DNA from: Eledone cirrhosa
Lineage: Eukaryota
Length of the DNA: 64,000 nt
Reading direction: 5' to 3'
Assembly (NCBI GenBank): GCA_964016885.1
Contig: OZ024740.1
Location: forward strand, 219,480,001 to 219,544,000
Part shown: piece after piece, positions 7,650 to 60,432 of the stretch
Position numbering within the stretch: the first letter of the stretch is position 1
Layout of the letters: each line of letters starts with the position of its first letter
Notes under the pieces: generated by a model
Database searches by the model: none
The model's input: only the letters and a program-made list of their open reading frames with translations
Told to the model about the DNA's origin: nothing
Position numbers and translations under genes: made by a program

Positions 7650-7816
7650 CAAATACTTTCCCAATTGATGGTATTGATCAGTTTGGTCGTACTCCACTCA
7701 TGTACTGTGTGTTAGCAGATCGACCTCACTGCGCCAAACTTTTACTTAAAGCAGGTTCCAATGTTAATATCAAAGATAAAGGTGGTCGCACTGCTCTGCA
7801 TGGGGCTGCTCATAAG
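7650..7816 (+). CDS. INVS: Inversin internal coding exon (167 nt, phase 1 to 0), ankyrin repeats
   Basis: tttcAG acceptor at 7648-49 and AAG|GTAAGT donor at 7817. Encodes NTFPIDGIDQFGRTPLMYCVLADRPHCAKLLLKAGSNVNIKDKGGRTALHGAAHK, matching recalled vertebrate inversin DQFGRTPLMYCVLADRLDCADALLKAGADVNKTDHSQRTALHLAAQK. Confidence 0.93.
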
Positions 7817-11708: not shown

Positions 11709-11740
11709 AGATCAAAAGATGGTTAAAAGAGTTCCATGTA

Positions 11741-11807
11741 TTTTATTATGCGCATTTCAAAAACAAATATCATCATGCAATAACATTTGTGTTTTCATCA
11801 GATAAAA
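11741..11807 (-). ncRNA. Type I hammerhead ribozyme motif (PLE-associated, minimal stem III)
   Basis: Minus strand: UUUUAU-CUGAUGA-[AAACACAAAUGUUAU..AUGAUAUUUGUUUUU]-GAAA-UGCGCA-UA-AUAAAA. Intact core, 6-bp stem I, palindromic stem III. Confidence 0.82.
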
Positions 11808-11888
11808 TAGGAAGACATGATATGAAGGTTAAAAAACACTTGTGGATAGTGCAGTTTTAAATCAATATATATATATATCATCATCATC

Positions 11889-18620: not shown

Positions 18621-21226
18621 TTGACTCTGATGTTGTCAACATTGGTTAAAAAAAAAAAGAAGTAAAAAATGATATTTTGGAGAAATATATATTGATAAAA
18701 GTGTGACTACTGATTTAAAACCGTTAATAACTATTGAATATTATATTAATTTATTTTCCATTCAATATATTTTATTGGTTTTTGTCAATCATATCATTAA
18801 GGATCACATGCTGAGTGCCAATTTCACAGTTGTTAATTTTAGATTTGATATAGTAGACAGTCATTTTTTTCCACATGTCCATTGTGAAAATGTATTTGCT
18901 AATATAGTTACACAATAGTGGAAGTGAACTTAATTTTCAAGATAGAAATCGAATACAATGTTTTACTAATTAGAGGCAGTTGATTCAATGTTTTAGTTTT
19001 AAAATGTAAATCTTTAAAAAATTGGCACCTGTAGCATATTTCTATGGATTTATTAACGATAAAAACCTGACATTAATTTTTAAAGCCGCCATCATCAGCC
19101 TTATCTTCATCCACTTCATCATTTTCTTGAAAATAATCATTACCACCACCATCATTGCCACCACCATCATTGCCACCACCATCATCATCATCATCATCAT
19201 CATCTTCATCATCATCGTTGTTATCAGTATCATCACCATCACCTTCATCATCCTCATCATCGTCCTCATCATCACCCTCATCATCATCACCCTCATCATC
19301 ATCACCGTCATCATCATCACCTTCATCATCATCACCGTCATCATCATTTTCATCTGTTAAATGTCAATGTTAACATTCTGTCATGGTGTTGATTGTCAGG
19401 AAGAAAAAAAAAAAACTTTTTTCAATCTCCTTGTTGTACCAGAACATAATTGTTTCCTTTGTGCAAGGCATAGGTCCAATATCTTTAAGAGTGATATCTA
19501 TTGATTCCTAAAATATTATGGGAACTTACTTTATTGACAGTTTATGCCTCTGTTCCAAATATAACAAAGATTTGATCCCAATATAATTTGAACATACTAC
19601 TGACTGCTTACTGATAGGTTTCTTGTTGAACTCATGGGATCCTAGGCCTGCAAACCACCTCCTTATTTAGTTTGATCAGGGTGGGGATGGCTATCTACAA
19701 GAATGAGCACTACAAGGATTCTGGCTCTTTCAGTTCATCTCCCCTCTGTCCACTAGGGTCACACATTCACCATTTTTGCCTGTCAGGGCCACAAAAAATG
19801 TATGTGATTTTCTTTGTTTATTATATTCACAAAATATGTTTTATTTGAACACATCAGTGAAGAACTAAATTAAACAGCAACAAGTCTAGTATGGTACTCA
19901 ATATTCTATGTGACTTCCTCGTAGCCTAAATACTAAGAAGTCATTAAAATTTTGAACCTTTTCTTACCATATTTCTAATGAAAAGACACCACACCACCTA
20001 TGATTTTCAAATATCTTTGAAAATTATCAAGAATGTTGTGGTATTTACTAATATCACTAATTTTCTCATTATTAAGATGGTGCAGTGTGGTGGATTGGCA
20101 GTATTGGTAGTGTGTCAGACAACATGTTTTGACACATATAGTTACGGCCCTTTATGTTCTGAGTTCAAATACCATCAAGGTTAGTTTTGCTTTTCATCCT
20201 TATGAGGTTGGTAAAATAAAGCACCAGTAATGCAATGGGGTTGATTTAATCAACTCCCCACAAAAGATTGTTGGCCTTGTGCCTAAATCAGAAACCATTA
20301 TTAAGATGGTGCTTGTAACATAAAGATTCTTACAAATTATCATGGAAGATTTTTAGATAAATATAGACACTTTAAAACAAACAATTTTGTATCTCAAGAT
20401 CAAGGGCGCTTTCAGGTGAGTTAGTATCAAGACAGTTAATGTTATTGAAATGTTCTATTCTTGTATGTCACAATAAGTTTACTTTGGTAAAACTAAATTG
20501 TTACCAAGCTTCATAGCTCTTGTTTCTATTTGAGGAAACAAAGTTGACTTTCAGAAGAAATTCTGGAAAAAGTGCCTGGAAATTTAAATGACTTTGTTGT
20601 GTGATCTTGAATAACAATATAAACCATTTATATTTATGTGTTAAATTAGTAGACATAGAAATTGAATGGTCTAGGAATGAGCTTTTGTGTAATAAAATTT
20701 CATTGTGTTCAATTAGTCAATGAAATGTAAATAACAATTTTAGTGGAGACTTGATTGTGTTCTGATAACTGGTGATAGATTTTGAAAAGTAACATTTACC
20801 TGGATGGGCTTTTGATGTTTATAGCAGTGAGGTATACTATCTTTATGGCTTAACTGCTAGATGGACTGGGTCATTAAGTTTTAAGTGATTGGATCATAGT
20901 CTCAATGTAATATCATTTAAAATGATATAAACAGCTAACTCACCTATAAATAATCTACTATTTTATCAACCAACAACCAGCTGTAATTTCTAATTATTAT
21001 ATCCCGCCAAGGTTAACTTTGTCTTTCGTCCTTACGGGGTCGATAAAATAAAGTACCAGTAATACACTGGGTAGTTGCTGGCCTTGTGCCAAAAAGTAGA
21101 AACAATTATATATATATATATAAATGTAATCTGAGTATTAATAGTAGTATTCAATTCATTTGCAATTATAGCCATGTCAATAGAATGGCCCCTCATTCTT
21201 GCTCTTGTGTTGGCATGCAAACTGAA

Positions 21227-21271
21227 CTGCAGATACTAATGTTTCTGTGTGATTACCCTTCATCAGTACAA
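21227..21271 (-). ncRNA. Type I hammerhead motif inside a PLE-derived repeat (~21150-21480)
   Basis: Minus strand: UUGUA-CUGAUGA-AGGGUAAUCACACA-GAAA-CAUUAGUA-UC-UGCAG. The sister copy near 23800-23840 has a perfect GGGU/ACCC stem II but a CUAAUGA core. Confidence 0.7.
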
Positions 21272-21564
21272 TATACTGCTTACCTGCCAACTGTCAAAGC
21301 TAGTGAAAATATATGATATTTTCTAAAATATACAGTGACTGATCTGCCTGATTTGCACATTAGCAGACTGCCTAATCAGTTTAGATATGCATATTAGCAG
21401 ACGCGCTAATCAACCAGATTTGCATATCAACAGATAGGCCAGTCAGTCTCATGTATACGAGCAATTAATGGCCGGCTTTGCCATATTCAAATAACTAACA
21501 AATACATTATCGCTCTACATGGCTGAATACAATAAATTTATATATGTATATATATATATATATA

Positions 21565-23231: not shown

Positions 23232-23703
23232 CTAGCAGAAAAACCACCCTTCGGGTGGTTTTCTGCCAACATGTGTAGTGTGTATATTGATATTATACGC
23301 AGGTATATATACATGTACATATGATGCATCAAATAAAATCGAATTAACAATATACACAGAAATTGAACGAAGACTGTGTTACACTATGTAATCAGTAATG
23401 TAATCCATGATACATTAAAAAAAGACAATATTATATATAAACTGCATTAGGAGAAAATTAATGAGAGAAATATAGGAATGTTTATTTAAGTGATCGCTAA
23501 CAGGTAGTGTTGACATTTGAAAATGTTAAAGAACTGAATCTTTAAATAAACAATAAAATATATTTAATAAACAGCTACGAAATTTAGTAGACAAATTATG
23601 TAATATTCATTCATTATTTATTCAAAGTAATCCAACTTATTTTACTATTTAAAAGAAATAAACCATACAGAGTCCCACACTCCTTACTTTATTATAGTTT
23701 AGA
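23232..23703 (-). mobile_element. Non-autonomous Helitron
   Basis: Minus strand A|TCTAAACTATAATAAAG 5' end, hairpin AAAACCACCC-GAA-GGGTGGTTTT, then CTAG|T at 23232; inserted at an AT site. Confidence 0.8.
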
Positions 23704-23705
23704 TA

Positions 23706-24050
23706 TTCGATTCATTTGCAATTATGCAAACAGTATCTTAAGCCATGTGAGTAGAACAGCCTTGTCATTCTTACTCTTGTGTTGGCATATAAACAGAATG
23801 GCACTAATGTTTCTGGGTGATTACCCTTCATTAGTACTATATACTGTTTACCAGCCAACTGTCAGAGCTAGTGAAAATATATGATATTTTCTGGAATATA
23901 TAGTGACAGGTCGGCCTGATTTGCATATTAGCAGACTGCCTTACCATTAGTGTCTGCCATTCTGTTTATATGCCAACACAAGAGCAAGAATGACAAGGCT
24001 GTTCTACTCACACGGCTTAAGAGGCTGTTTGCAGAATTGCAAACGAATAG
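23706..24050. mobile_element. PLE-derived fold-back element (same family as 21150-21480) with ~100-bp inverted arms
   Basis: 23708-23808 is the reverse complement of ~23946-24050; carries a degenerate HHR. Confidence 0.75.
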
Positions 24051-24071
24051 ACTATTATTATTAATAATCAC

Positions 24072-25141: not shown

Positions 25142-25315
25142 GGTAATTTTCGTCTATTGAAATTACTGTTATCACGAAATGCAAACTGCCGAGAGAAAGA
25201 CAATGAAGGTCAAACTGCAATGCATTTGTGTACCAGGCATAAATCTTTAAAGAGTCTGACACTTCTGCTAAAACAATTGACACCCGGGGAAATAGATGAT
25301 CAGGATAAATACAAG
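25142..25315 (+). CDS. INVS: Inversin internal coding exon (174 nt, phase 0-0)
   Basis: Pyrimidine tract plus ttattAG at 25140-41, AAG|GTAAAT donor. Encodes GNFRLLKLLLSRNANCREKDNEGQTAMHLCTRHKSLKSLTLLLKQLTPGEIDDQDKYK, the direct continuation of inversin (GNYRFMKLLLTRRANW...PGEVDTQDKNK). Confidence 0.93.
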
Positions 25316-25337
25316 GTAAATAAAGTATTGAAAACTT

Positions 25338-25461
<124 letters not shown>

Positions 25462-25520
25462 CTTTATATCAGTTATAAAAATATTTACTTGTTGTATCCC
25501 AACAATTTTAAATAGAACTT

Positions 25521-25563
<43 letters not shown>

Positions 25564-25655
25564 ATATGAATATATATGTGTGTATGTGTGTGTGCGCGCA
25601 TGTGCGTGTGTGTAAAATTGCCTCCTGTGTTTTGATGTTTCAATTATTAACTATA

Positions 25656-25689
<34 letters not shown>

Positions 25690-25754
25690 GTTAATAATTA
25701 TTAACTATATATATATATATATATATGTGAATATATATATATATATATATGTGA

Positions 25755-25819
<65 letters not shown>

Positions 25820-26262
25820 TTATATATTTATATGTCTATGTCTATGTATGTATGTATATATATGTATGTATATGTCTATGTCTATGTATGTATGTATATA
25901 TATGTATGTATATGTCTATGTATGTATTTATATATATATTATGTATGTATGTATATATGTCTATGTATGTATTTATATATATATATATGTATGTATATAT
26001 GTCTATGTATGTATTTATTTATATATATATATGTATGTATATATGTCTATGTATGTATTTATATATATTTATATATATATGTATATGTCTATGTATGTAT
26101 TTATATATATATATATATATATGTATGTATATATGTCTATGTATGTATTTATATATATATATATATGTATGTCTATGTATGTATTTATATATATATGTAT
26201 GTATGTATATATGTCTATGTATGTATTTATATATATATATGTATATATGTATTTATAATATG

Positions 26263-26326
<64 letters not shown>

Positions 26327-26454
26327 ATATATATTCCATTTATTTAACATCAATTGAATACTTACTCCAGAAATCTGTCGAGTTTTTTGAATCAGTTGTA
26401 AACATCTATATTTGTTGGATTTCCAACAAATTAAATATCTCTTATATATATATA

Positions 26455-26600
26455 GGAACAAGTCCAGAATTAGCCGTCGAAACGGCTTGAGCTCTGCCAT
26501 CGGGGTCTTACTTGTTCCTATTACCCACTCTACTACCCTAAGTATTGAGTACTTTGGTGCGTTATGGTCCACCTGGTTCCTTACCACATTTCCTTCGTTA
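26455..26600 (+). mobile_element. Neptune-PLE 3' terminal fragment; shorter copy at ~15468-15533
   Basis: Near-identical to the reverse complement of 56311-56452; ends CATTTCCTTCGTT then (AT)n. Confidence 0.85.
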
Positions 26601-26766
26601 TATATATATATATATAAGGTTAATGCCTTCTTGACCACTTTTTCAGTTTGTTTGGCATTTTAACATATTGTTTAGCTCTAGTTTTTTAACTATTGGAGCG
26701 CTTGCCAGCATATCTACGATTTTGCGTTTTGTTTCGCTTTTTCTACCCGCCGAAATACGATTCTGA

Positions 26767-26807
<41 letters not shown>

Positions 26808-27039
26808 AATATATAGACATATACATACACACACACATATATATATATACACATATTTTATATAGAAATTACTTCTACAGGACAAGAACTCCTTCATTCA
26901 AAGGAAATCTAAGCCCAGATGATTTCTTTTGAATGAAATAGTTCTAATCCTGTAGAAGCCATTTCTATATTAAACATTTATACTCTGCTATGTATTGAGT
27001 GCCTTTTACCCCCGATTGAACCCGGGACACAGACACATA

Positions 27040-28136
27040 TCTATATATCTAAAACAGAGAATGTCTGTCTGTCTGTCTGTCTGTCTCCCTAAAACTTTAC
27101 ACATGTAATACTTATGGCCCTGTGAGTGTTTTGAGCAAAAAATATTTCAAATTTTGAATGCCCTAGGGACCGCGTTAGGTGCCGGTTTGTGATCTCTCTG
27201 TCTTTCTTAGTCTGTCTTTTGAGATAGATACATAGCTATAATGTCGCACCCTTATAATATCTGTCTGTATGTCTGGCTGTCTGCATTACGACATTATGAC
27301 ACTATCTGTGTGTGTGTATATATATCATATATCATCATCATTTTACGTCCACTTTTCCCTGCTTGCAAGGGTGGGACGGGAACTGATTCTGGCTTGATTT
27401 CTACAGCTGGATACATAGCTAACACCAACCTCATTTACAGTGAGTGCTGGGTGCTTTTTTGCCGTGGCACCTCCACGACCACTTTGCAGTGGAATGATAG
27501 GGACCCCAGTCCTATCATCTCATTTCTACAGCTGAGTAAACTGGAGCAATGTGAAATAAAGTGTCTTGCTCAAGGAAACAACACATCACCCGATCTGAGA
27601 ATTGAACTCACAAACTTTCGATTGCAAGGTCAATGCTCTAACCACTAAGCCATGTGCCTCCATGAGATAGATATAGGTATATATATGTATATATATATAG
27701 TGTGTAACGGTTTTTTCGAAATATTTACTTCTTCGTTCATAGATTGATTTTTTTAGTTTCAGAAAATCCTGTTAAGGGTGAAAGCAGCGATTCTTCGCTT
27801 AAACTTTAATCTGTTATTTTAATATATATATATATATATATATATAATTATATATTTGTGTACAGATATTTTTGCATACACAATAACAAAATATAAAAAA
27901 ACGTGTTTATTTCATGAGGCTCGACAGCAGCAAAAACAACAAAAAAGAGAGGGAACACAATTACATACTTTTGAAAAATCTTAATGGAAAATTATTTCCC
28001 TATTCACCCAAGGCAACTTCACTTTTTATTAGGACTGCATCAATTGGTGAACATACGACGAAAATGTTTCAGAAAGGAGGGATAAACATGCCGATCTATG
28101 TTTAGAATCCCGAGCAACGCTGGGCCATTCTGCTAG
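27040..28136 (+). mobile_element. Non-autonomous Helitron with nested SINE (27330-27662)
   Basis: A|TCTATATATCTAAAACAGAG 5' end followed by (CTGT)n; 3' CCCGAGCAACGCTGGG hairpin and CTAG|T. Confidence 0.85.
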
Positions 28137-28691
28137 TATATATATATATATATTTTCAACATCACTGTTAAATGTCCATTTTTCCATACTAGCATATAGG
28201 TTAGACAAGTTGTGAGACAAACCAGATCAGATGACTGAGTCTGGCTCATACAGAACTATGTGTGACTTAGTTTCTATATTATCATATGTATAGCCATGAT
28301 TGGGTGGTTAAGAAGTTTGCTTTGTAGCCATTTGGACTGGGTTCGATCCCACTGCATGGCACTTTGCACAAGTGTCCATATCATATATATGTGTGTGTGT
28401 GTCTGTGTGTGCATGTATGTGTGTGTGTGTCTGTGTGTGTATGTGTGTGTGTGTGTCTGTGTCCATATCTATATGAATATGCTGTGTCTCTGTATCCATT
28501 GCTGTTAATGAATTTTATCTCCACAAAAACTATTAAGTTTTATAATCCCCTATGTTTGTATTATCCAAGTATATAATAGTGGTGTCTATGAAGGCATATA
28601 TGATATTTTTATGTATAATAAACATACAAGTGTCTTGCTTTGAATATTTTAAGCTGTGTTCATGTCACAGCTATCTTGGTAGTCAATGAGA

Positions 28692-28736
28692 ATATCAGAT
28701 ATATGTTTCTGGTTGTTTATCCTTCATCAGTGACAT
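28692..28736 (-). ncRNA. Type I hammerhead motif in a tandem ~350-370 bp repeat (28575-29110)
   Basis: Minus strand: AUGUCA-CUGAUGA-AGGAUAAACAACCA-GAAA-CAUAUA-UC-UGAUAU. A degenerate second copy lies at ~29058-29104. Confidence 0.78.
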
Positions 28737-31139
28737 CTACTCACTTGGTACTGGGACAAGAATAAAATAAATCTTATATGGTTTTCTTGGATATGAAACA
28801 CCAGCTGGGGATGGTCATTTGCATATAGTGCAAATAAAATATTGGCTAGAGATGCTCCTTTGTATATAGTGTGAACTTGACTTGCTAGGATTAATTAGCA
28901 GTAGCATTAACATAATAGGGTTCATAATAGGTATGTATATGAAGACATATATGATATGTTTATGTATAACAAGCATACAAGAGTATGAATATTGTTCTGA
29001 ATATTGCTATGAATATTTTAACCTGTGATCATTATGACAGCTACCTCAGTAGACTGAGAATGTCAGACACCTGCTTCTGGATTTTTGTCCAGCATTTGTA
29101 ACATTTACTCCCACAAGACTGAGTTTAACTCTATATATCATTTATTGAATATCATAACAACAGCTAATAATGCTATCTTTAATTGAACACAGTAATTAAA
29201 TATAACTCAATTTGAATTGCTCACTATTGTAGATATTCAGATAGTTGTTTAAGTTTTAAGTATTTTTCTCCTAGAAAAAATACAGATTTTATGATGTTAT
29301 AATTGTTTCTACTTTTGGCACAAGGCCAGCAATTACCTAGTGTATTACTGGTACTTTATTTTATCGACCCCGTAAGGATGAAAGGCAAAGTTAACCTCGG
29401 CGGGATTTGAACTCAGATCATAAAGGGATGTAACTCTATGCTTCAAAGCATGGTGTCTGACATTACTAACATTACGTGGTAAGTGTGTTGCTCTTATGAT
29501 TATAATATCATGGGTTAAATTCCTGGACCAGGAAGTGTGTTATGTTCTTGATATAATTTACTTTTTTATGAAAATAAAATACAGTAAACAAGTAACTAAA
29601 AAACCCAATCTAACTCGAGAACAACTATCCATGTGTCTTCTATGTTTGCATGCCAAAGTATTAGCTAACACTAAATATTTTTCCTAAATATTACATTTAA
29701 CCCGAATGTTATTACAACTGATGTTGAAAATGTTGTAAATCATCAAATCCATGTATATAATAACACTGTGATGAACTAACATCCTGCCTTGTATTCTCAA
29801 TAGCTGAACCTCAGTGAAACTGGGATAAGTTCCAGTCTGATGAGCCTTTGGGTTCATGACAGATTTTAACCTCTTTTTTTTTTGCCTCCTGACTTAAACT
29901 TGAGACTTTGATTTCACAGAAAATAAAAAGGCTTTATTTTATATTAATCTGATGATCTCCAAAAAGAAAGATTTGTTGCTTCAAATGATTAAAACCTTGT
30001 GGTTTATATAATGTCTTCATTATTGGTGAATTGGCAGAGTCGTTAGAACGTCGGATAGAATGCTTTATGGTATTCGTTCCAGCTCTCTGCTCTCAGAGTT
30101 CAAATCCCGCCGAGGTCAACTTTGCTTTTCATCCTTACGGGGTCGATAAAATAAAGTACCAGTAATGCACTGGGATAATTGCTGGCCTTGTGCCAAAAGT
30201 AGAAATAATTATTAAGAACAAAAATATATATACAATGAAATAAAATAAATATAATTTTACAATGGAATGGTAATAACCATAAATTAATTCTGCCTCAAAA
30301 ATGCCTAATCCAATCCATGCTACCATCGTGAAGAAAATCATCATCGTTTAATATCCATTTTTCCTGCTAGCAATGGTTGGACATATCACAGATAGATCAG
30401 TGCTGAAGCAGAACCTCTGACTTCCAGGTAGGCTGGCTGCCTGACATACAATCCCATGCTCTACTAAGTGCATTTTATTGTGACACCAAACACTAGGGAA
30501 GTTGTCATGATATTGGAATCTTTTTGTTTGGCAAGTTTTCTATGGCTGAAAGCTTTTCCTATCACCTTCCACTCTACAGTGTGTACTAGATGGTCATTTA
30601 TCACGTAGATCAGGTTGGCATGTCTATGACACAGCTAAAGAGTCTTCTTGACCCTATATTTAGCAAGTCTTCTATAGTTTGATGCCCTTTTTATCACCAA
30701 CCTCTTTTCGAAGTGTACTGAGTCCTCTCAAACCTTTTGGCATAGTTTCTACAGTTGGGTGCTCTTCCTTTTGCCAACCACCTTACAGGGTGTAATAGAT
30801 ACATTTATTGTGGCACTGTCACTAGAGAATCTGTCATCATTGACTCAACTGAAGAGCCCTCTCTACTCTATGGACAGAGTTATGGTGTTGCCTAGTGTGG
30901 ACGTTTTTTTACAGGGTGAGGGGTAGTGAATGAGAGGAGGGATATTAGGTAGTGTGGGTGGTACAATGGTGATAACAGCTACTATGGGATTATGTCTGGT
31001 GTGTCAAAGTTAAGGAGTGTATCTAGAGTAGAGTGGAGGATGGGTGGGTGTGACGCTGGGTAGAGTGTGGTTCTGAGAATAGCTACTATAACTGTGGAAA
31101 TGGTGGCTTGTGGGGTGGGGCTACAGTAAAAGTGATGAT

Positions 31140-31600
31140 AGCTGGTAAGGGGTGACTGTGGTCAGCCCCCATTACTTCATCCCATGTCTTTGTGCATCTG
31201 TCTCTTCCACGAGTTCCCTCCACAAAGATTTCTCTGCACTTCTTTAAACAGCTGTCATCTTCCATGTACATCATATATCCATATCATTGCATTTTTCTAT
31301 CCTACACTAAATTTGATTCCTTTTATGCCAAGTTTTTTTCTCAGTTTACTTATGCTACATAGTTCATGCACACTAACATTACACATCCATTGGAACATAC
31401 TCACTGTATTTCTTTCTAGCCTTCTCAGGTCTTCTGTAGTCAAGGTGCATGTCTTATTGCCATGTAGCATTACAGCTGACATGCAGGCATCATACAGTCT
31501 ATCCTCCACTATGAGAGATATTATTCTTAATTTAGTTATCACAGTTTCAAAGCATCCTCATTCCCTGCTGATTAAGTCACATAAGTAACAAAAACTGTCA
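31140..31600 (-). mobile_element. Old degenerate RTE LINE fragment
   Basis: RLYDACMSAVMLHGNKTCTLTTEDLRRLERN..WMCNV aligns with the RTE ORF at 38164-40524. Confidence 0.8.
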
Positions 31601-32113
31601 ACAGTTCTAGGGAGCACCCCTTGCAGCTTTGTGTTCTTAGTGCTTACTTTTCTTGTAGTGAATAAATTTCATTGGGAATGAAGACATGTTCAGATGGGTA
31701 GAAACAGTTATAGTAGCAATAAAATAGACTGAGAGATAACATATCTTAATGATAGTGAATAAATATATAAATATTAATGTTTGGGAGAGAGGACAGAAGT
31801 AGAGGAATGGGAAAAAAGACATGGCAAAAGATGATGGAGAAGGAAATAAAAGCCTGGGCATTGGTGATAAAGGATGTAGAGGATAGGAAAATAGATGAGA
31901 TCGCCATGAGGCTAAAAAATGCTTTTTCTTAATGTATAATATTCAACAGGTAACAACATAGGGTAGAAAGGACTCATTAGTCATGCCCTGTGCCATGATA
32001 AATGCACCTACTACATTGTGTAAAGTGGTAGGCATTAGGAAGGAATCCAAAACTAGAGCGTGTGTGAGTACATGTGTAAGCAAAACATGGTCTCCCAATT
32101 CCATCTATGGTGG

Positions 32114-32144
<31 letters not shown>

Positions 32145-34353
32145 GGTGGTGGTGGTGGTGGTGGTGGTGGTGGTGGTGGTGATGATGATGCATTTAAGAA
32201 TAATTGTTTCTAATTTTGGCACAAGGCCAACAATTATCCCAGGGCATTACTGGTACTTTAGTTTATTGACCCCGTAAGGATAAAAGGCAAAGCTAACCTC
32301 GGCAGGATTTGAACACAGAACATAAAGGGTCATAACTTCATGCTACAAAGCATTGTGTTTGATGCTCTACCGATACTGCCAATCCACTGCCCTGCATTTA
32401 AGAATAATAAAATCTAACAGAGTGAACTACTTCATTCATAATATTTGAGCAATTATTCCATAGTGGTGATTCTGACTAGAGGTGTTGATTTTATTGAAAC
32501 CAAGCTGGGTGATATGCAAGTGCAAATTAACCAATTGCAAGACAAACTAAGCTTATGAGTTGCTAATTTCTATCAAGTCTAGGTTTATTGAAAATTATGT
32601 TTAAATCTAATGTAGCTAATGTATAGAAGAGGATGCTTTATAAAGTGTCCATTTTATTGTAGTTATGAAATAAGGTTCGGTTGAAAACAGAAGAAAATAC
32701 TGCTATTAGTGACAGAATAGTGTTACTGTGTTAGGATTGGTGAGTTCTGAGACAAGAGAAACACATAATTTAACTGACATATATTTTGGATTGTAGCCAG
32801 AAAGTGCAGTTATTTGGCAAACTGAAGTTTTATGAGTGTATGTGTATCCTTATGTTTATATGCTTGTGTGTATGTGTGTGTGTTTATGTACATGTAAGTG
32901 TGTATGTGCATGTATATAAGTGTGTGAATGTGTGTGTGCATGTGTGTATAGGCATGCATGTGTATATATGTGTGTGTGTGTATATGTGCATATGTGTGTG
33001 TGCATGTGTGTGTATATGTATGTATGTATATATATGTGTGTGTGTGGCTTAGTGGTCAGGGTGTTTGGTTCATGATTGTAAGGTCATGAATTTGCCTCCT
33101 GGCAATCATGTGTCCTTAATAAAAACACTTTGTTTCATGTTCTTCCAGTCCATTCAGCTGTACATTCAAAGGTCCAGCCTTGACCGGGGCCTATGAGAGG
33201 GAGGTCCAGCCAGTACTTTGTTCTGGGGCCCAAGAGCTAAGAAGGCCCCACAGCAACCATTTAATATCCATTTTGAGAAAAATCTTTGCCTGCTTCGGGC
33301 TCCAAAGGAGTCTTGTACCTCCTTGCAAAAATTTCTCTAGGAGGCCCTGACCTTGACACACATTCTGGCTACACTGAATCTCCCTGAGAATTACATTAAG
33401 GATACAAATGCCTGTGGAATGCTCATCCACTTGCACATTAATTTCATGAGCAGGGTATACCATTGATCAAACAACTGAACATTTATCATCATAATTGAAG
33501 GAGGTTTGACAGTGTGTGTGAGTGTGTGTTTGTGTGTGGGTGTGTGTGTGAGTGTGTGCGTTTGTGTGTGTGTGAGTATGTGTGTGTGAGTGTGTGTGTG
33601 TATGTGTGTATGTTTGTGAATGAGAGCGTGTGTATGAGAGCGTGTGTGTAATTGCATGTGAGTGAGTGAATGTGTGTGAGTGAATGAATGTGTGTGTGTG
33701 TGATTGTGAGTATGTGAGTGATTGTGTGTGTGTATGAGTGTTTGTGTGATTGAGTGTGTGTGCATGTGTGTGTGCGAGTGAGTGTATGATTAAGTATAAT
33801 GTGAGTGAGTGTGTGAATGTGTGTATGAGTGTGTGTCTGAGTGTGTATGTGTGTGTGTGTGTATCTGAGTATCTGTGTGTATGTGTATTTGTATTTTACA
33901 AATTTGTTATTAGCTGTTGTTATGGGTTGAAAGCTTTGAAAAATATAACCAAAAAGCTTTTTGTGTATTGAATGAAAAATGTGAGAGAATAAACCAATCA
34001 CTTTGATGAAGTGCTTTGAAAAGTTCTTTTTTTTTTTCCCCCATATTTGTGATTTGGTTTTCTATAATAATTGATCATAATGAACCATTGAAAACCATGT
34101 TTGTTTTATATTGTTCATACATTTTTAATTATGTAAATTTTTCAGTGAAAAAAAAGAAAAATAATCATCTTGGTATATGTTTGGAAAGTTAGCATATTTT
34201 GCTGCTGCTTTGACTATTTTACCCCCCCAAAATGACATATTTATGTGTGTGTGTCTTTGTATATATATATATACACACACATATATACACCCATGCAAGT
34301 GTGGAAAAATAGAAGTTAAATGTTGATGAAGATGATATATATATATGTGTGTG

Positions 34354-34412
<59 letters not shown>

Positions 34413-34496
34413 CATAATCATCATTTAACACCTATTTTTCCATGCTTGAATATATATATATATATATAAAAATAATATTACTATTAATAATAGTAC

Positions 34497-34528
<32 letters not shown>

Positions 34529-34614
34529 CATAGAAATATATAAACATGCATCTAACTATCTATTTATCTTTCTCTCTCCCTCTCTCTCTCTCTATATATA
34601 TATATATTTATATA

Positions 34615-34691
34615 CAGGTGTCCCCCAAAAATGTATACACACCTCATCAGTATTCTAATAAATGTGTGTATACATTTTTGGGGGACATCTT
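34615..34691. mobile_element. Tiny Tc1/mariner-type MITE; related left end at ~55394
   Basis: TA|CAGGTGTCCCCCAAAAATGTATACAC ... GTGTATACATTTTTGGGGGACATC. Confidence 0.7.
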
Positions 34692-34753
34692 CATATATAT
34701 ATATCATCATCATCATCACTGTTTTACGTCCATTTTTACATGCTTGCGTGGGT

Positions 34754-34819
<66 letters not shown>

Positions 34820-35921
34820 TACACAATCTGTTTAGGTCACTTAATATTAATCTAGGAAGGACTGAAAAAAAGAAAATTATTTCTCAATTTTTTAGTGTTT
34901 TTTTTTTTCTATTTTATGCTCATCCTAATTTCTAACACTGAAGTTATTAGCTGCGAATAATTACCCAAATTGATTTGTTGCTTCAGGTATTGATTTCACG
35001 CAGCTGATCAATTACTTGTCAACTTTCTCAAATATCCATAATGCATAATAACTAAAATGATCCAATCAGTGAAAAGCAAAGCTTCTAAGTCTGTTATCTT
35101 TTTTTTTGGGGGGGGGGGGGGGGGGGGGTCTTTTTGCTATATTATAATTATTATTATTATTACCATCATTATCATCATCATCATCATCATTTTTATTATT
35201 ATTATTTTTATTATTATTATTATTATTATTATTTATATATTTATTTATTTATTTATTTATTTGGGTTTTTTCCCTTTTAAATATTATAAATTTTATCAAT
35301 TTTTAATGACTTGTTACCGTTCGTTAGAAATCTACTTCACGAACATTGCCTGTTGCTCCTCTGTGAATTCCAATTAAGCGACACTAAATATATTGATTGG
35401 TAATTTCTGGTTTTGTTACAGTAAGTGATAATATCATTGCTTAGTCTCCACATGAACAAACTACATCAAATATTTCATTTCTGTTTGAGGTGGAACCAGT
35501 ATATATTATTATGTCCTGCTAACTGTAATAATAACATCTACAAGCTTCTATTATAACGAAACAACAACCAGCAATAATTATAAAATATTGAAAAAAATAA
35601 GAATTGTTTTTTCTCTAAATTAATATTTATTGCTTTACTAGATTGAAAATAAAGCCCCCCCCCCCCACACACACACACTCACACAAACATACACAAACAC
35701 ACACACACACACACTCATACACACACACACACTCATACACACACACACTTATATGTGTGTGTGTGTGTGTGGGGGGGGTTATGTATATACATTCATATAT
35801 ATTTAACCCATGAAAACATGGAAAATAGATGTTAAATAAGGATGATGATGATGATGATGATGTCTGCATATTCATATTTGTATGTATATGCAACCTCCTA
35901 CATATATACATAAATGAATAT

Positions 35922-35963
<42 letters not shown>

Positions 35964-36005
35964 GAATATTAATAAATGAAGACATTCACATAATCAAAAT
36001 ATATG

Positions 36006-36067
36006 TTTTATTATATATATTTCGAAGGTACTATGGTGTTTTTTCAGTACGTCCTCATCAGATAAAA
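36006..36067 (-). ncRNA. Type I hammerhead ribozyme motif
   Basis: Minus strand: UUUUAU-CUGAUGA-GGACGUACU..AGUACCUUC-GAAA-UAUAUA-UA-AUAAAA. Confidence 0.85.
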
Positions 36068-36182
36068 TACATGAATTGATGTATCACATAACTCAACATT
36101 CTTGATGGTTCAATTCCAGTATTGGCAATACTGGAATTGAATCATCAAGACCGTTGAGGTATGTCATACATCAATTCATGTA

Positions 36183-36245
36183 TTTTATCTGACGAGGACG
36201 TACTGAAAAAAACAGCACAGTACCTTCGAAATATATATAATAAAA
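36183..36245 (+). ncRNA. Type I hammerhead ribozyme motif (sense to INVS pre-mRNA)
   Basis: UUUUAU-CUGACGA-GGACGUACU..AGUACCUUC-GAAA-UAUAUA-UA-AUAAAA; predicted cleavage after 36239. Confidence 0.85.
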
Positions 36246-36389
36246 CATATATTTTGATAATGTGAATGTCTTCATTTATTAATATTCTGAATAATATTAA
36301 TAACTCCAGAAAACTTTTATTGTAGAGTGCTTTTAATCTATTGTAAAACTATATTCATTGAGTAATCAATGAACCATATTAATCTTTGG

Positions 36390-36427
<38 letters not shown>

Positions 36428-36471
36428 ATAATAATAAATGTGAAGACTAAAATCCAAAGATTTAATCTGTT

Positions 36472-36526
<55 letters not shown>

Positions 36527-37054
36527 GCGTGTGGCTGAGTGGTTAGAGAATTGGATTCGCAATCGTAAGGTTGTGAGTTCGATTCCTGGACCAGGCGATG
36601 TGTTATGTCCTTGAGCAAGACACTTTATTTCACGTTGCTCCTTCTACCTGGAGTTGCGACCGATAGATAGTATTAGCAATTGGAAAGACCAACGGAAACA
36701 TTGTTCCCTCGGTCTGATTTGACGAAAGTCGATCGTTCCTTATATATATATATATATATACATTGCAGGTTGTTCTAGAATTCTATGTGTATAAAATGTT
36801 ATAATGTTATATGAAATAGGAAAACACTTTATTAGTGTTGGCAGCATTGTTTATATATTACATACCATTAATAGAAGTGGCTAAATGCCAATGTATCAAA
36901 GCTTACATTTACTTTTGTTTATTGTGATATCAGAGATTCATTTGTTCTGCTATAGTTTATTAAAATATACCTAAGATGATTGCAGATATTAAAATCTTAA
37001 TGGTTACCATTTTCATTTAATTTATTTTTGATATAAAAGTGTTATAATGCAGTA

Positions 37055-37810
<756 letters not shown>

Positions 37811-40524
37811 CATCATCATCATCATCATCAACGTTTAACGTCCGTGTTCCACGCTGGCATGGGTTTGGACGGGGGTAGTCCCACTTGAGGCAAGAGTGAT
37901 TGTCTTGCTCGCATAGGACTGTCTGGCAGGTTTTCTACAGTTGGATGCCCTTCCTAACACCAACCACATTTACAGTGTGGGTCTGGGAGGTTTTTACCGT
38001 GTTGCCTACACGGCCACATTACAGCGTGGACTGTGTGTTTTTTTGTCGTGACACCTACACGATCTCATTTGTTTCGGCCTGGATGGCGCGGCACCAACAT
38101 AACTTTACATAGAACGGGGTGGTGTGGATGGGGTGGGGGTGGCGGCGGGAGGGGTGTATTTTGTTAGAGATGCCTACTGGCAAGGCGGGTCTTCTCTGTT
38201 ACTGAGTACCGCCAAAGGTCACGGTCCAGTGACATTGTCTTGGAGAGGTGTAAGTGTGTGAGGTCGGAGTTTATCAGCTCATCCCATGTTTTTCTAGGTC
38301 TGCCTATTCCGTGGCTACCGTCTATCTTTATTGCCCTGCACTTTGTAATACAGCTATCGGCTTTCATGCGCATCACGTGTCCATACCAACGCAGCCTTCT
38401 CTCGAGTAAACAACATCTGATCCCTCTTATCTCTAATTTTTTCCTTAGTTCGTTTATGCTTTGCCGTTCACGTATATTACTGTTACACATCCAGCGGAGC
38501 ATGCAAGCTTCGTTCCTCTCTAGTCTGCGTATATCCTCTGCACACAATGCCCAGGTCTCACTACCATGCAACATTGCTGTTCGTATGCAGGCATCGTACA
38601 ACCTGCCTTTCATTTTTAGGGAGAACCCTTTAGCAGCTAATAGTGGTATAAGCTCTCTGAACTTTTTCCAACCAGTTCTGACTCTAGCTACAGTACTTTC
38701 AGAGCACCCTCCCCCACTGCTGATTTTATCGCCCAGGTAACGGAAGCTGTCCACTATTTCTATAGAACCCTCTGCGCAATTGAAAGAGCTAGTATTTTGT
38801 GGGCACTTGCTGCTACTTATTGCACCAGAACACCGGCCACATGTAAAGTCTATGTTCTTAGTTAGCTTACCTGTGATCCCACTACATCTTTTATGCACCC
38901 ATACTTTGCATTTAGGACATAAGATGGAGTTTCTACCTACGCCTTTCCTACATACCGAGCACGACCATTTCCCAGAAGGGACCGCCGCCTTGTTTTCTTT
39001 CCTACAAACTAGAACTTTGGTCTTAGCCAGGTTAATTTTAAGTCCTTTTGACTCTAGGCCGTGCTTCCATGTTTGGAATTTCTTCTCTAGCTTGGCCATT
39101 GATTCCGCTATGAGTGTCAGGTCGTCTGCGTATAGGAGTTCCCATGGGCAGCCTGTCTTGAACTCCTCTGTTATAGCCTGAAGGGCAATAATAAATAGTA
39201 GGGGGCTGAGAACAGAGCCCTGATGGACGCCAACTTTTACGCTAAACTCTTCACTATATTCGTTGTTAATTCTAACCTTGCTGACTGTTTCTTTATACAT
39301 GGCTTGTATAGCCCTCACAAGCCATTCGTCAACGCCTAGTTTTCTAAGAGCCCACCAGATAATGGAGCGGGGGACTCTGTCGAAGGCTTTCTCCAGGTCG
39401 ACAAAAGCTAAGTAGAGGGGTTTACCTTTAGCTAGGTACTTCTCCTGTAGTTGTCGTACTATGAAAAGAGCGTCTGTGGTGCTTTTGCCTGACACAAACC
39501 CGAACTGCATTTCATCTAGATCAATTCTCTCTCTGATTAGTTGCGCTATTACTTTTTCCGTGACCTTCATGACCTGGTCGATTAATTTAATGCCTCTATA
39601 GTTACTCCTATCTAGGGCGTCTCCTTTACCCTTATAACAGTTAACGATGATGCTGCTATGCCAGTCCTTCGGAACAACCCCATTCTGTACGACTTGGTTA
39701 ACTATGCGGGTGACCATGGTGTGTCCCACCGTGCCAGATGCCTTCAGCATCTCAGCAACTATTTCCGAAGGCCCAGCCGCCTTACCAGTCTTCATATCCT
39801 TGATTGCCTTACTTATTATACTCCCCTCGACTAACACTGCTGGTCCCTCTATCGGGTCGATAAGGGGGAGACTGTCTTTCTCCCATTTATTCTCCTCATT
39901 TAGTAGCCTTTCATAGTGACACTTCCAAGCTACCTTCTTATCAGTGTCGGTGATGGCAAGTATGCCATCATCGTTAAGTACACACTTCTCCCCGACAATA
40001 TCACGGTTTTCCTTGACGCATTGCCTGGCAATCCTGAACACCTCACGTTTTTGGTCATCGCGTTGTAGAACATGCTTGAACTTTCTTTCCTCAGCTTCCC
40101 TTCTTGCTAAGTACACTTCTCTCCTAGCTTCCCTCCTGGCCACTTGATAGTCTACTCTACTTCCCCCATCCCGCCATACTTTCCAAGCCTGCTTTTTGGC
40201 CTTAATTGACCCCTCCACCCTATTGTTCCACCACCATGTTACTCTCCTCCTGCCTACAGGCCTGCTCCAGCCACAGACTTCGTCTGTCGCCAACAGCAGG
40301 TTTGCTTTCAGAAATTTCCACTGTCCCTCTATATTGTCCGATTCTAGATGCTCTTCCTTACTGTCGAAAGCATCAAGTAATATGCTTTGAAATTTATTTC
40401 TGGCTGTGGGGTCCTTTAGTTTCCATATTTTCCTCCTGAGGATAGTCCTCTTCTGCTGTCGGGTGCGTCTCGTCCTGACTATGAGGTCGCTAATTATCAG
40501 TCTATGTTGGGAGGTGCATTCTTC
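37811..40524 (-). mobile_element. Young 5'-truncated RTE LINE; uninterrupted ORF 40524-38164 (~787 codons): end of APE domain, RT, PHD-type finger
   Basis: EECTSQHRLI (APE end), NYRGIKL, QFGFVSGKSTTDA, FVDLEKAFD, GVHQGSVLSPLLF, YADD, FRYLG, WYGHVMR; (GAT)n tail at 37811-37829; both ends in (TA)n. The N-terminal IY repeats of the 950-aa track ORF are microsatellite. Confidence 0.97.
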
Positions 40525-40726
<202 letters not shown>

Positions 40727-40819
40727 TATATAATATATATATATAATATATATATATAATATATATATAATATATATATATAATATATATATAATATATA
40801 TATATAATATATATATAAT

Positions 40820-40958
<139 letters not shown>

Positions 40959-41895
40959 AGGCACATGGCTTAGTGGTTAGAGCATTGGCCTTGCAATCGA
41001 AAGGTTGTGAGTTCAATTCTCAGACCGAGTGATGTGTTGTTTCCTTGAGCAAGGCACTTTATTTCACATTGCTCCAGTTTACTCAGCTGTAGAAATGAGA
41101 TGATAGGACTGAGGTCCCTATCATTCCACTGCAAAGTGGACATGTAGGCACCATGGCAAAAAAAGCACCCAGCACTTACTGTAAATGAGGTTGGTATTAA
41201 GAAATCAATATGTAGAAATCAAGCCAGAATCAGTTCCCGTCCCACCCTTGCAAGCAGAGAAAAAGCAGACGTAAAATGATGATGATGATTTATATAAAGA
41301 TTTATATAATGGCTTGTAACTCCTTCATTCATTCATTTGCTTATATATATATATATATATATAACATATATTATATATATATTCCATATATATATAACAT
41401 ATATATTATATATATATATTCCATATATACATATATAATATACATATAACATATAAAATATATATATAATATATAATATATAATATATTATATATATATA
41501 TATATAACATATATATAACATATATAATATATATATATAACATATATATAACATATATATTATATATATATAACATATATATTATATATATAAAACATAT
41601 ATATATAACATATATATTATATATATATATATATAACATATATATTATATATATATATAAAACATATATATATATAACATATATATTATATATATATAAA
41701 ACATATATTCTATATATATATATAAAATATATATATTATATATATTCCATATATACATATATATATATTATATATATTCCATATATACATATATATATAT
41801 TATATATATTCCATATATACACACACATATATATATATATATATAAAACATATTTTAATTCAGTGTTCCTGTATTGTTTTTCTCTTGTTCTTCAG

Positions 41896-41961
41896 AGAAC
41901 AGCACTTCACAGAGCAGCATCCTATGGTAATATTGATCATGTAAAGATGCTTATTAAACAA
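41896..41961 (+). CDS. INVS: Inversin internal coding exon (66 nt, phase 0-0); not in the ORF track
   Basis: ttcttcAG acceptor at 41894-95, CAA|GTAAGT donor. Encodes RTALHRAASYGNIDHVKMLIKQ (inversin QTALHWSAYYNNPEHVKLLIKH). In frame with the previous exon. Confidence 0.9.
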
Positions 41962-57596: not shown

Positions 57597-58280
57597 TTAC
57601 AAAGTCGGAAAGTGGGGGTGTTTCAGCCCTTGTCTACCCCCCCCCCCCGGGTCATTTTGGGGTTTGAGGGCGAGGTAAGTCCTACGCAATCTGTGTTTGC
57701 ATGCAGTTACCAGTTCGTCTTTCTTGTTTAGGAGTTGGTCCTTCGAAAACACCATTTGTAATGTTTCCTCCGAGCATAAGTTACACGGACGGCATTCTCC
57801 CATGTAAGAGTTAGCTCTGGACAGTAAGCTCCAAGTGAGATTGTATGTTATATTATTAGCTTTGAGGTCCCAGATGTGGCCCGAGAGTGTAGTGGTGTGA
57901 TGCCGGGCCGAGTTTCGGAAAGTATGTCTGTGTAGGTAGAGCCGGGTCTTGAAGTCACAAGCGGTTAATCCTATATAAGCTTTGTTGGAGGTGTCCGTCC
58001 TCACATTGCACTGGTAGATCACATTACGATCTTGGCATCTGTTGTTGAGGGGGCAAAGGGATCTATCAGGACAGTTGTACCTCCTGGTCGGCTCTCCACT
58101 GCTGTCTCAGTTATTTCTTCCATAGGGGTTGAGTTTTTTGTTGTTAGAGGAGACGATGTTTTGTGCAAAGTTAGGTGCTGTGCTGTAGGAGAGTTTAATG
58201 GTGTTTTTGTTGATTATGTTGTGGTAGCGGTGTTGTAGTGGGAAGTGTTTTTCAATGAGTCTAAAGAAGATTTTCGACCT
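57597..58280 (-). pseudogene. PLE ORF remnant: Neptune linker plus GIY-YIG endonuclease, one in-frame TGA at 58107-58109
   Basis: FFRLIEKHFPLQHRYHNIINKNTIKLSYSTAPN...*...YNCPDRSLCPLNNRC...VIYQC...YIGLT...FKTR...H...CNLCSEE...LLNKKDEL...CKHR; the two track ORFs are in the same frame. Confidence 0.9.
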
Positions 58281-58660: not shown

Positions 58661-58666
<6 letters not shown>

Positions 58667-60432
58667 GTCCTTCATCAGTGATCTTCCAACCTTCATTGGT
58701 ATTTCATCGCTTTAAAAATCATATACCTCTGGTTGGTGCGAGCAATAACTAAATAAAGTTATTGGGACAAGTAAAATAGCGTGAAGTGAGCGAGACATGT
58801 AAACAAACCAAGATGGTATTGCAAAGGAAAGATAGGAACAGACAAGTACATGATATCTATAAGCTTAAGCTTGGTGAATTCATGGACGAGAGATACAGGC
58901 CGTCCGACATGGCTGAGATGTGAGCGAGAAAAGGATGTCACACAGGTCAAACGGGAGGGAGTGAGAGAGGAGGAGAAGTAGAGAGTGAGTGAGTGAGTGG
59001 AAGTGTGAGGAAGAGGCCAGCCGAGAGAAAGTGTGACTGGCAGAGGGGGTAAAAAGAAGGTGAGAGATACAGAGAGAGGGGAAGTAGTAAGAAAGAAACA
59101 GACAATCGCAGCAGAGGGGGTAAAAAGAAGGTGAGAGATACAGAGAGAGGGGAAGTAGTAAGAAAGAAACAGACAATCGCAGCAGAGGGGGTAAAAGGAA
59201 GGTGAGAGATACAGAGAGAGGGGAAGTAGTAAGAAAGAAACAGACAATCGCAGCAGAGGGGGTAAAAAGAAGGTGAGAGATACAGAGAGAGGGGAAGTAG
59301 TAAGAAAGAAACAGACAATCGCAGCAGAGGGGGTAAAAGGAAGGTGAGAGATACAGAGAGAGGGGAAGTAGTAAGAAAGAAACAGACAATCGCAGCAGAG
59401 GGGGTAAAAAGAAGGTGAGAGATACAGAGAGAGGGGAAGTAGTAAGAAAGAAACAGACAATCGCAGCAGAGGGGGTAAAAGGAAGGTGAGAGATACAGAG
59501 AGAGGGGAAGTAGTAAGAAAGAAACAGACAATCGCAGCAGAGGGGGTAAAAGGAAGGTGAGAGATACAGAGAGAGAGGAAGCAGTAAGATAGAAAGAGAC
59601 AATCGCAGCAGAGGGGGTAAAAAGAAGGTGAGAGATACAGAGAGAGGGGAAGTAGTAAGAAAGAAACAGACAATCGCAGCAGAGGGGGTAAAAGGAAGGT
59701 GAGAGATACAGAGAGAGGGGAAGTAGTAAGAAAGAAACAGACAATCGCAGCAGAGGGGGTAAAAGGAAGGTGAGAGATACAGAGAGAGGGGAAGTAGTAA
59801 GAAAGAAACAGACAATCGCAGCAGAGGGGGTAAAAAGAAGGTGAGAGATACAGAGAGAGGGGAAGTAGTAAGAAAGAAACAGACAATCGCAGCAGAGGGG
59901 GTAAAAGGAAGGTGAGAGATACAGAGAGAGGGGAAGTAGTAAGAAAGAAACAGACAATCGCAGCAGAGGGGGTAAAAGGAAGGTGAGAGATACAGAGAGA
60001 GAGGAAGCAGTAAGATAGAAAGAGACAATCGCAGCTGAGGAAAAAATATAAATATAAGAAAAATGGAGTGCTGCGTGGTTGCACATGGGTTACATATGAA
60101 TAAAATTAGATCCTTTTCTCGCTCACATCTCAGCCATGTCGGATGGTCTGTATCTCTCGTCCATGAATTCACCAAGCTTAAGCTTATAGATATCATGTAC
60201 TTGTCTGTTCCTATCTTTCCTTTGCAATACCATCTTGGTTTGTTTACATGTCTCGCTCACTTCACGCTATTTTACTTGTCCCAATAACTTTATTTAGTTA
60301 TTGCTCGCACCAACCAGAGGTATATGATTTTTAAAGCGATGAAATACCAATGAAGGTTGGAAGATCACTGATGAAGGACTAATTTTATTCATATGTAACC
60401 CATGTGCAACCACGCAGCACTCCATTTTTCTT
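58661..60432. mobile_element. Non-coding PLE-like element: permuted unit on minus strand (60109 to 58661) plus inverted partial copy (60110-60432)
   Basis: 58661-58936 is the reverse complement of 60110-60385, and 60056-60109 is the reverse complement of ~60379-60432; flanked by TA tracts. Confidence 0.8.
59040..60033. repeat. 71-bp minisatellite, 14 copies
   Basis: Unit GCAGAGGGGGTAAAARGAAGGTGAGAGATACAGAGAGAGGGGAAGTAGTAAGAAAGAAACAGACAATCGCA starting at 59040, 59111, 59182, etc. Confidence 0.97.

Follow-up and report, generated by a model that had tools for sequence, protein, structure and literature searches.

A fossil tandem of a hammerhead-ribozyme repeat, probably of the retrozyme type, in an intron of the cephalopod Eledone cirrhosa

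What kind of element left two diverged, head-to-tail copies of a short hammerhead-bearing unit in the genome of the cephalopod Eledone cirrhosa? The copies lie in a 64,000-nucleotide stretch of DNA (the window; assembly GCA_964016885.1, contig OZ024740.1, positions 219,480,001 to 219,544,000), whose own numbering is used here, and they had been picked out from the letters alone as an aged retrozyme of the kind without long terminal repeats (non-LTR; hereafter the sequence-only reading). The array fits a known class, of which it is a new and in itself ordinary fossil member. On balance, we take it for what is left of a hammerhead repeat that was non-autonomous, was of the non-LTR retrozyme type, and arose from Penelope-like elements (PLEs) or was moved by them.

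28573..28923, minus strand: unit 1, downstream in the RNA sense; 351 bp, 33% GC.
28924..29247, minus strand, 5' end approximate: unit 2, upstream in the RNA sense; ~325 bp alignable.
28698..29065, minus strand: would-be cut-to-cut monomer; 368 nt, without a self-pairing signal.
28984..29017, plus strand: local expansion within unit 2, 12 bp x 2.8.
29280..29475, minus strand: younger interspersed repeat just past the 5' end of unit 2 and outside the unit, presumably like a short interspersed nuclear element (SINE).

How far do the two copies extend, and how old are they? Positions 28573-28742 match 28924-29110 at 71% identity including gaps (E 2e-24), with a local score of 185.5 compared with a maximum of 53 among 500 shuffles, so the diverged repeat that the sequence-only reading placed at 28575-28750 and ~28930-29110 is real. 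Homology continues past those ends: 28756-28879 is likewise alignable with 29113-29247 (88 of 121 columns; score 42.5, equaled by none of 1,000 shuffles, the best of which reached 42.0). The array is therefore a near-dimer, with ~1.9 units head-to-tail in all rather than the 1.5 first proposed. Unit 2 is without a counterpart to the final ~44 bp of unit 1, and its 18-bp insertion relative to unit 1 is explained by the 12-bp expansion. The units abut, with no central region between the two repeats, and neither flank yielded a significant third unit (the best candidate, in simple or SINE-like sequence of the left flank, was matched by 4 of 300 shuffles). Their GC content is 29-33%, all three sense frames contain stops, and no open reading frame (ORF) of at least 120 aa overlaps them. 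The great age that had been proposed stands: 68 of 290 aligned columns differ between the units (23% substitutions), compared with 5-7% in three local SINE-like pairs, and the insertion is accordingly old. The proposed monomer, 28698-29066, was also placed correctly, as H17 falls at 28698 and 29066, 368 nt apart.

28686..28744, minus strand: type I hammerhead of unit 1; C3 28730, A15.1 28706, H17 28698.
29054..29112, minus strand: hammerhead relic of unit 2; H17 29066, homologous motif at 29098.

Are the two ribozymes intact? The canonical type I features (CUGANGA and GAAA boxes, a U-H site and stem I) are present in unit 1 only, where the boxes read CUGAUGA and GAAA and stem I consists of 7 bp, a 2-nt bulge and 5 bp. 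The canonical G10.1-C11.1 pair on the core is absent even there: stem II is reduced to 2 bp beneath an A·A opposition, the triplet is AUC, and stem III is mispaired (C15.2·A16.2), leaving 15.2-16.2 unpaired. The hammerhead fold has a predicted energy of -5.4 kcal/mol, compared with a minimum of -7.6, and stem I has a probability of ~0.02 in the folded ensemble, in context. Thus, the copy that had been called complete has the core boxes, the U-H site and a 7-bp stem I, and is incomplete in its C·A mismatch, its 2-bp stem II and its non-minimum fold. The decayed hammerhead expected at the equivalent position of the second copy is there, with boxes CAAAUGC (three of seven positions changed) and GAAGC (one change), and it retains the GUC site, a 7-bp stem I and a 4-bp stem II. 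With the core of unit 2 lost, the locus is not expected to give a circle, and we are confident that the array is inactive and produces none today. Differences between the units occupy 16 of 59 columns in the ribozyme region and 19 of 111 in the downstream part; conservation in the ribozyme region does not exceed that of the sequence downstream, which fits neutral decay. A cross-unit ribozyme, in which the core of unit 1 would act on the GUC of unit 2, is complete on paper (7-bp stem I, 4-bp stem III); as a source of monomers it was rejected, lying 8.5 kcal/mol over the minimum with a probability of ~0.005 and giving one cut and no monomer.

The motifs themselves stand well clear of background. 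A type I descriptor, written after the motif had been seen and allowing stem II to be flanked by one extra base on either side, found two window sites with a stem I of at least 7, compared with none across 200 shuffled windows. With a stem I of at least 6 plus stem II, it found four, compared with 0.005 per window (200 shuffles).

21132..21480, upstream end approximate, minus strand: e21, a distant relative of the unit, single copy.
21218-21280, minus strand: hammerhead of e21; C3 21266, both core boxes, AUC site, H17 21232, stem II damaged.
23703..23941, minus strand: e23, a distant relative, 5'-truncated.
23790-23848, minus strand: hammerhead of e23; C3 23834, one core change, 4-bp deletion at the cut site.
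23945..24070, plus strand: inverted, 5'-truncated copy of the 3' end of e23, head-to-head with it; GUC site and 3' strand of stem I intact.

Does the unit occur elsewhere in the window? The sequence-only reading was to be given up for a single-copy unit; two distant relatives, e21 and e23, lie within 8 kb. They are 81% alike, and their alignments to unit 1 score 57 and 63, respectively, compared with shuffle maxima of 51 and 47.5 (100 shuffles). The inverted copy beside e23 begins within loop III. A model built from the four window copies recovered no fifth in the 64 kb (next score, 15 bits). Past the cut site, the 3' ends of the four copies lie at 125, 142 (including the 18-bp expansion), 100 and 97 nt. 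Across the same four, 84.7% of 72 cells of the hammerhead structure are paired, a proportion as high in 2 of 500 shuffles and falling to 28-53% when the structure is slid, and two-sided changes occur in 5 of 19 pairs (36 of 500 shuffles as high). Such covariation would point to past selection on the fold, and we regard it as supportive, not as proof. Three of the four copies have A·A opposed at the stem II base.

28817..28824, minus strand: exact octamer ATGCAAAT in unit 1, beginning 94 nt upstream of C3.

Is there a trace of how the unit was transcribed? Small nuclear RNA (snRNA)-type promoters use an octamer, and the octamer of unit 1 may be a promoter element. It has been lost at that place in unit 2, is exact in e23 (92 nt upstream of C3) and has one mismatch in e21 at 92-94 nt, where a second, exact octamer lies 159 nt upstream of C3. 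In a position range of this kind, an exact match has a background rate of 0.11%; being homologous, the copies do not count as independent trials. Retrozymes are said to lack promoters (PMC7761336), and newt satellite 2 is reported to have an snRNA-type promoter (cited in PMC2220036). No description of a retrozyme with an octamer was found in the literature searched, and a positioned octamer offers a testable handle on retrozyme transcription.

Is the A·A opposition decay or a natural variant? Among hammerhead pairs, only 15.1-16.1 is said to be more conserved than the one that it replaces, G10.1-C11.1 (PMC3088659). We scanned prokaryotic genomes by core motif, with a query that required the A·A arrangement, and obtained 63 matches at 61 loci, none of which was similar to the units as DNA at E <1e-3; a phage collection gave no match (plasmids and E. 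coli lay outside the search). Three matches are full type I hammerheads, with a 7-bp stem I, a palindromic stem III and GUC, features that were outside the query, and all three belong to one locus, L058. Among the other matches, L012 has six stem I pairs without stem III, and the rest look like chance. L048-L050 (CAZOXE010000054.1) are three motif matches ~750-770 bp apart on a 3.7-kb contig, without hammerhead stems, and represent another kind of repeat.

L058 (L058:330-1340; CAXMWX010000005.1, locus range 809662-811568) is filed under a metagenome-assembled genome of Gammaproteobacteria and comprises 2.8 copies of a 341-bp unit. Its units are intact, 98% identical and 49% GC. The locus has three type I hammerheads with A·A at the stem II base, together with an inverted 5' piece and a target duplication of 11 bp; the monomer is strongly self-paired (z -6.5; 0 of 60 shuffles). 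One flank encodes DUF5641, which we take to be a domain of BEL/Pao retrotransposons, and the other an ORF without a Pfam match. The DUF5641 flank makes it probable that L058 is animal DNA binned with bacterial sequence; as a substrate for tests, it would serve far better than the array. It resembles the array unit in its A·A opposition, palindromic stem III, GUC and 7-bp stem I and is unrelated to it outside the ribozyme. The occurrence of A·A in three young, intact L058 copies and in three of the four window copies suggests a natural variant, not decay; as the query demanded A·A, the scan does not bear on its frequency. Literature titles yielded nothing relevant on an A10.1·A11.1 hammerhead, which may already be drawn in print. 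Its retention in three intact L058 units would widen descriptors and could mean that a subclass escapes genome counts. L058 also puts the Rfam results in proportion: the whole window gave no match at the gathering threshold, and 28400-29300 gave 13 at E up to 10, none of them a hammerhead, which says little because the intact L058 array itself scores just 17-19 bits (E 0.15-0.92), far under threshold.

Which known system does the array most resemble? Non-LTR retrozymes are known from coral, mussel and axolotl, and those of mussel measure 350-390 bp (Cervera and de la Pena 2020, PMC7229834). Elements of this kind have head-to-tail units of 150-450 bp with GC below 50%, a monomer that pairs strongly with itself, neither LTR nor primer-binding site nor polypurine tract and, where a target-site duplication is present, one of more than 4 bp. 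The array shares with metazoan retrozymes its short head-to-tail non-coding units, close to mussel size at 351-368 bp, its low GC and its single type I hammerhead per unit at the same position. Its short, palindrome-like stem III implies dimeric cleavage, as in those elements. The retrozyme architecture initially claimed is thus upheld for the head-to-tail units, the type I hammerhead in each, the low GC and the lack of an ORF, and it falls short in that neither ribozyme is intact. Unlike metazoan retrozymes, the array has damage in both ribozymes, ~1.9 units, no detectable target duplication or self-pairing, A·A in place of G10.1-C11.1 (or one extra base per side) and the positioned octamer. 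An active retrozyme is recognized by two consecutive complete hammerheads (bioRxiv 10.64898/2026.07.22.740005); here, the unit 2 core is broken and unit 1 is mispaired at 15.2/16.2, and we therefore file the array as a relic. It is also like newt satellite 2 in being a tandem unit with a dimer-type hammerhead; unlike the array, that satellite is high-copy and expressed.

Under the reading that we favor, of a retrozyme-type repeat moved by PLEs, and by inference from PMC7229834, PMC4209133 and PMC11167929, the ancestral unit would have been transcribed, perhaps from an internal octamer-containing promoter. Adjacent hammerheads would then have paired through stem III, which is short and palindromic, and cleavage at GUC would have freed ~350-nt monomers for circularization. 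A PLE reverse transcriptase may have begun at a point ~100-125 nt downstream of the cut and run on past a single unit, either round the circle or on a multimer template, so that ~1.9 units were inserted; antisense insertion in a host gene would have spared the pre-mRNA from cutting, and both units would have decayed thereafter. Mobilization by PLEs is supported by the inverted 5'-truncated piece in e23, such pieces being typical of PLE insertions (PMC8557442). Also in favor of the reading are the presence of a GIY-YIG PLE fragment in the window and the young L058 array, unrelated to this one, whose tandem copies bear a ribozyme of the same type. In an anole PLE, reverse transcription starts ~85-92 nt past the cut site, with a second start one 30-40-bp tail away (our arithmetic from PMC11167929). 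Even in young copies, formation of a circle cannot be taken for granted, because hammerhead cleavage is unnecessary for insertion in vitro (PMC11167929) and one of nine predicted Xenopus dimers was cleaved (bioRxiv 10.64898/2026.07.22.740005).

Several observations weigh against this reading. The array amounts to two units, both broken, and both relatives are single copies, not arrays. Significant alignment of the relatives to unit 1 is limited to the surroundings of the ribozyme: upstream similarity taken alone is reached by 8 of 1,000 shuffles for e23 and is not significant for e21, and downstream similarity taken alone is not significant for either, so the shared 3' register rests on weak homology. 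The covariation test used four related sequences and a hand-drawn structure. Around the array, no convincing target-site duplication was found, only a 7-bp AT-rich repeat, and self-pairing of the monomer is slight (z -0.3 to -0.7). The PLE remains in the window, at 57.6-58.9 kb, match the units in half a core only (3 of 100 shuffles). L058, by contrast with the array, lacks the octamer, and its end lies 14 nt beyond the cut site. Age would erase a target duplication. As for self-pairing, 13% random decay of the well-folded L058 monomer shifts its z to between +0.5 and -2.9 (8 trials), and the low value of the array is uninformative, since comparable decay erases the signal in this control.

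57597-58270, minus strand: Penelope-like fragment; a stretch that is presumably reverse transcriptase (RT)-thumb-like, an in-frame stop, then a GIY-YIG-like ORF (57597-58106).

Could the units instead be the pseudo-LTRs of an autonomous PLE, a case that the sequence-only reading itself named as one that would refute it? The array would then be a severely 5'-truncated partial tandem whose ORF is gone, with a ribozyme that was the PLE's own and a unit that never existed as a separate small circle, a possibility that we rate as real but minor. Most insertions of PLEs are partial tandems, 5'-truncated and with inverted pieces (PMC8557442); a small palindromic helix III is likewise seen in some PLE hammerheads (PMC4209133), and in Xenopus, retrozymes are homologous to pseudo-LTRs (bioRxiv 10.64898/2026.07.22.740005). 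Like pseudo-LTRs, the array has a type I hammerhead ~100-125 nt from its 3' end, with an extra base after A9 (PMC4209133; PMC8557442; bioRxiv 10.64898/2026.07.22.740005), and forms a partial tandem; e23 has Penelope-type geometry, including its inverted 5'-truncated copy, and the relatives are solo copies. A coding PLE, however, has an ORF between its repeats, whereas here the units abut, contain no ORF and no PLE-like frame, and have no matching autonomous partner in the window. Neither translations nor tblastn with the window's PLE fragment revealed a PLE protein remnant in or near the array, and that fragment is not homologous to the units beyond the half core. The helices are of canonical metazoan type I size, with a bulged stem I, and do not take the PLE form with long stem II and minimal stem III; stem II is short compared with the 7-8 bp of that minimal form (PMC4209133). 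The two readings overlap, because retrozymes have been proposed to derive from pseudo-LTRs (bioRxiv 10.64898/2026.07.22.740005).

Alternatively, a single hammerhead element may have inserted once and been duplicated later in place, as DNA, in which case the tandem would be uninformative on an RNA circle. The region is rich in local duplications, unit 2 has its internal expansion, a short repeat lies at the unit junction, and e21 and e23 are both non-tandem. The repeated stretch nevertheless begins at the apparent 3' end of the element, at a distance from the cut site like that in the relatives, which a random duplication need not respect, and we consider this course of events unlikely. A decayed, U24-like box C/D small nucleolar RNA (snoRNA), with UGAUGA as box C, a terminal stem and a guide element, is largely refuted and very improbable. 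Rfam places SNORD24 at 28663-28735 on the minus strand (24.1 bits, E 0.21), the 3' guide segment matching closely, and the minimum-energy fold closes a terminal stem; yet the score is below the gathering score of 41, and we judge the match to be chance. The D box is CUGU in both units; neither unit 2 nor the relatives retain the guide segment, whereas the hammerhead stems covary; and the motif is antisense to the host gene, whereas intronic snoRNAs are sense to theirs. Chance in AT-rich DNA is refuted: bare CUGANGA...GAAA cores abound, the window having 15 of them, and Rfam finds no hammerhead, but cores with both stems number four, compared with 0.005 per shuffled window, and the motif stands at homologous positions in four copies.

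If the array is the fossil of a retrozyme-type repeat, what might its living relatives be? The broadest proposal is an undescribed mollusc family, probably cephalopod, whose young members would make ~350-nt circles from the octamer promoter and would use an active A·A variant common to unrelated animal retrozymes such as L058; we think this doubtful as a whole. The array itself would extend retrozyme-type repeats to a cephalopod genome. We found no title describing hammerhead elements in octopus or other cephalopods (most subscription papers were outside the literature searched).

7650-7816, plus strand: host exon; ankyrin repeats, matches inversin-like proteins.
25142..25315, plus strand: host exon upstream of the array's intron; ankyrin repeats, inversin-like.
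41896..41961, plus strand: next host exon found; ankyrin repeats.

In what surroundings does the array lie? The host gene is inversin-like: for the exon at 7650-7816, the best 120 of 652 matches include molluscs and amphioxus at 76-80% identity and none with octopus in its name. The exons at 25142-25315 and 41896-41961 join in frame, which places the array within one intron (25316-41895) and antisense to the gene, so its ribozymes cannot cut the pre-mRNA. The gene has 17-kb introns, and six of the seven main hammerhead motifs there are antisense to it. Farther downstream, the GIY-YIG ORF of the PLE fragment was recognized by Atlas and missed by Pfam. Beside it, a 276-bp inverted repeat (58661-58936 and 60110-60385, 99% identical) holds just the first half of a hammerhead core and flanks a minisatellite of 71 bp x 14 at 59040-60040.

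Other hammerheads and elements share the window. At 35963-36290, an inverted pair with 4 differences in 113 columns bears two hammerheads, one on each strand (C3 36061, minus; C3 36189, plus) and from a different family, with intact cores, a long stem II, a palindromic stem III and 15.2-16.2 paired; both are more intact than those of the array. A further type I hammerhead, at 11740-11815 on the minus strand (C3 11801), has an 8-bp stem I, a long stem II and a palindromic stem III and is present as a single copy in the window. A non-LTR retrotransposon has a long open frame, encoding RT and a PHD-like finger, at 38164-40500 on the minus strand, and decayed relatives of it lie near 10.4-11.5 kb and 46.0-47.4 kb.

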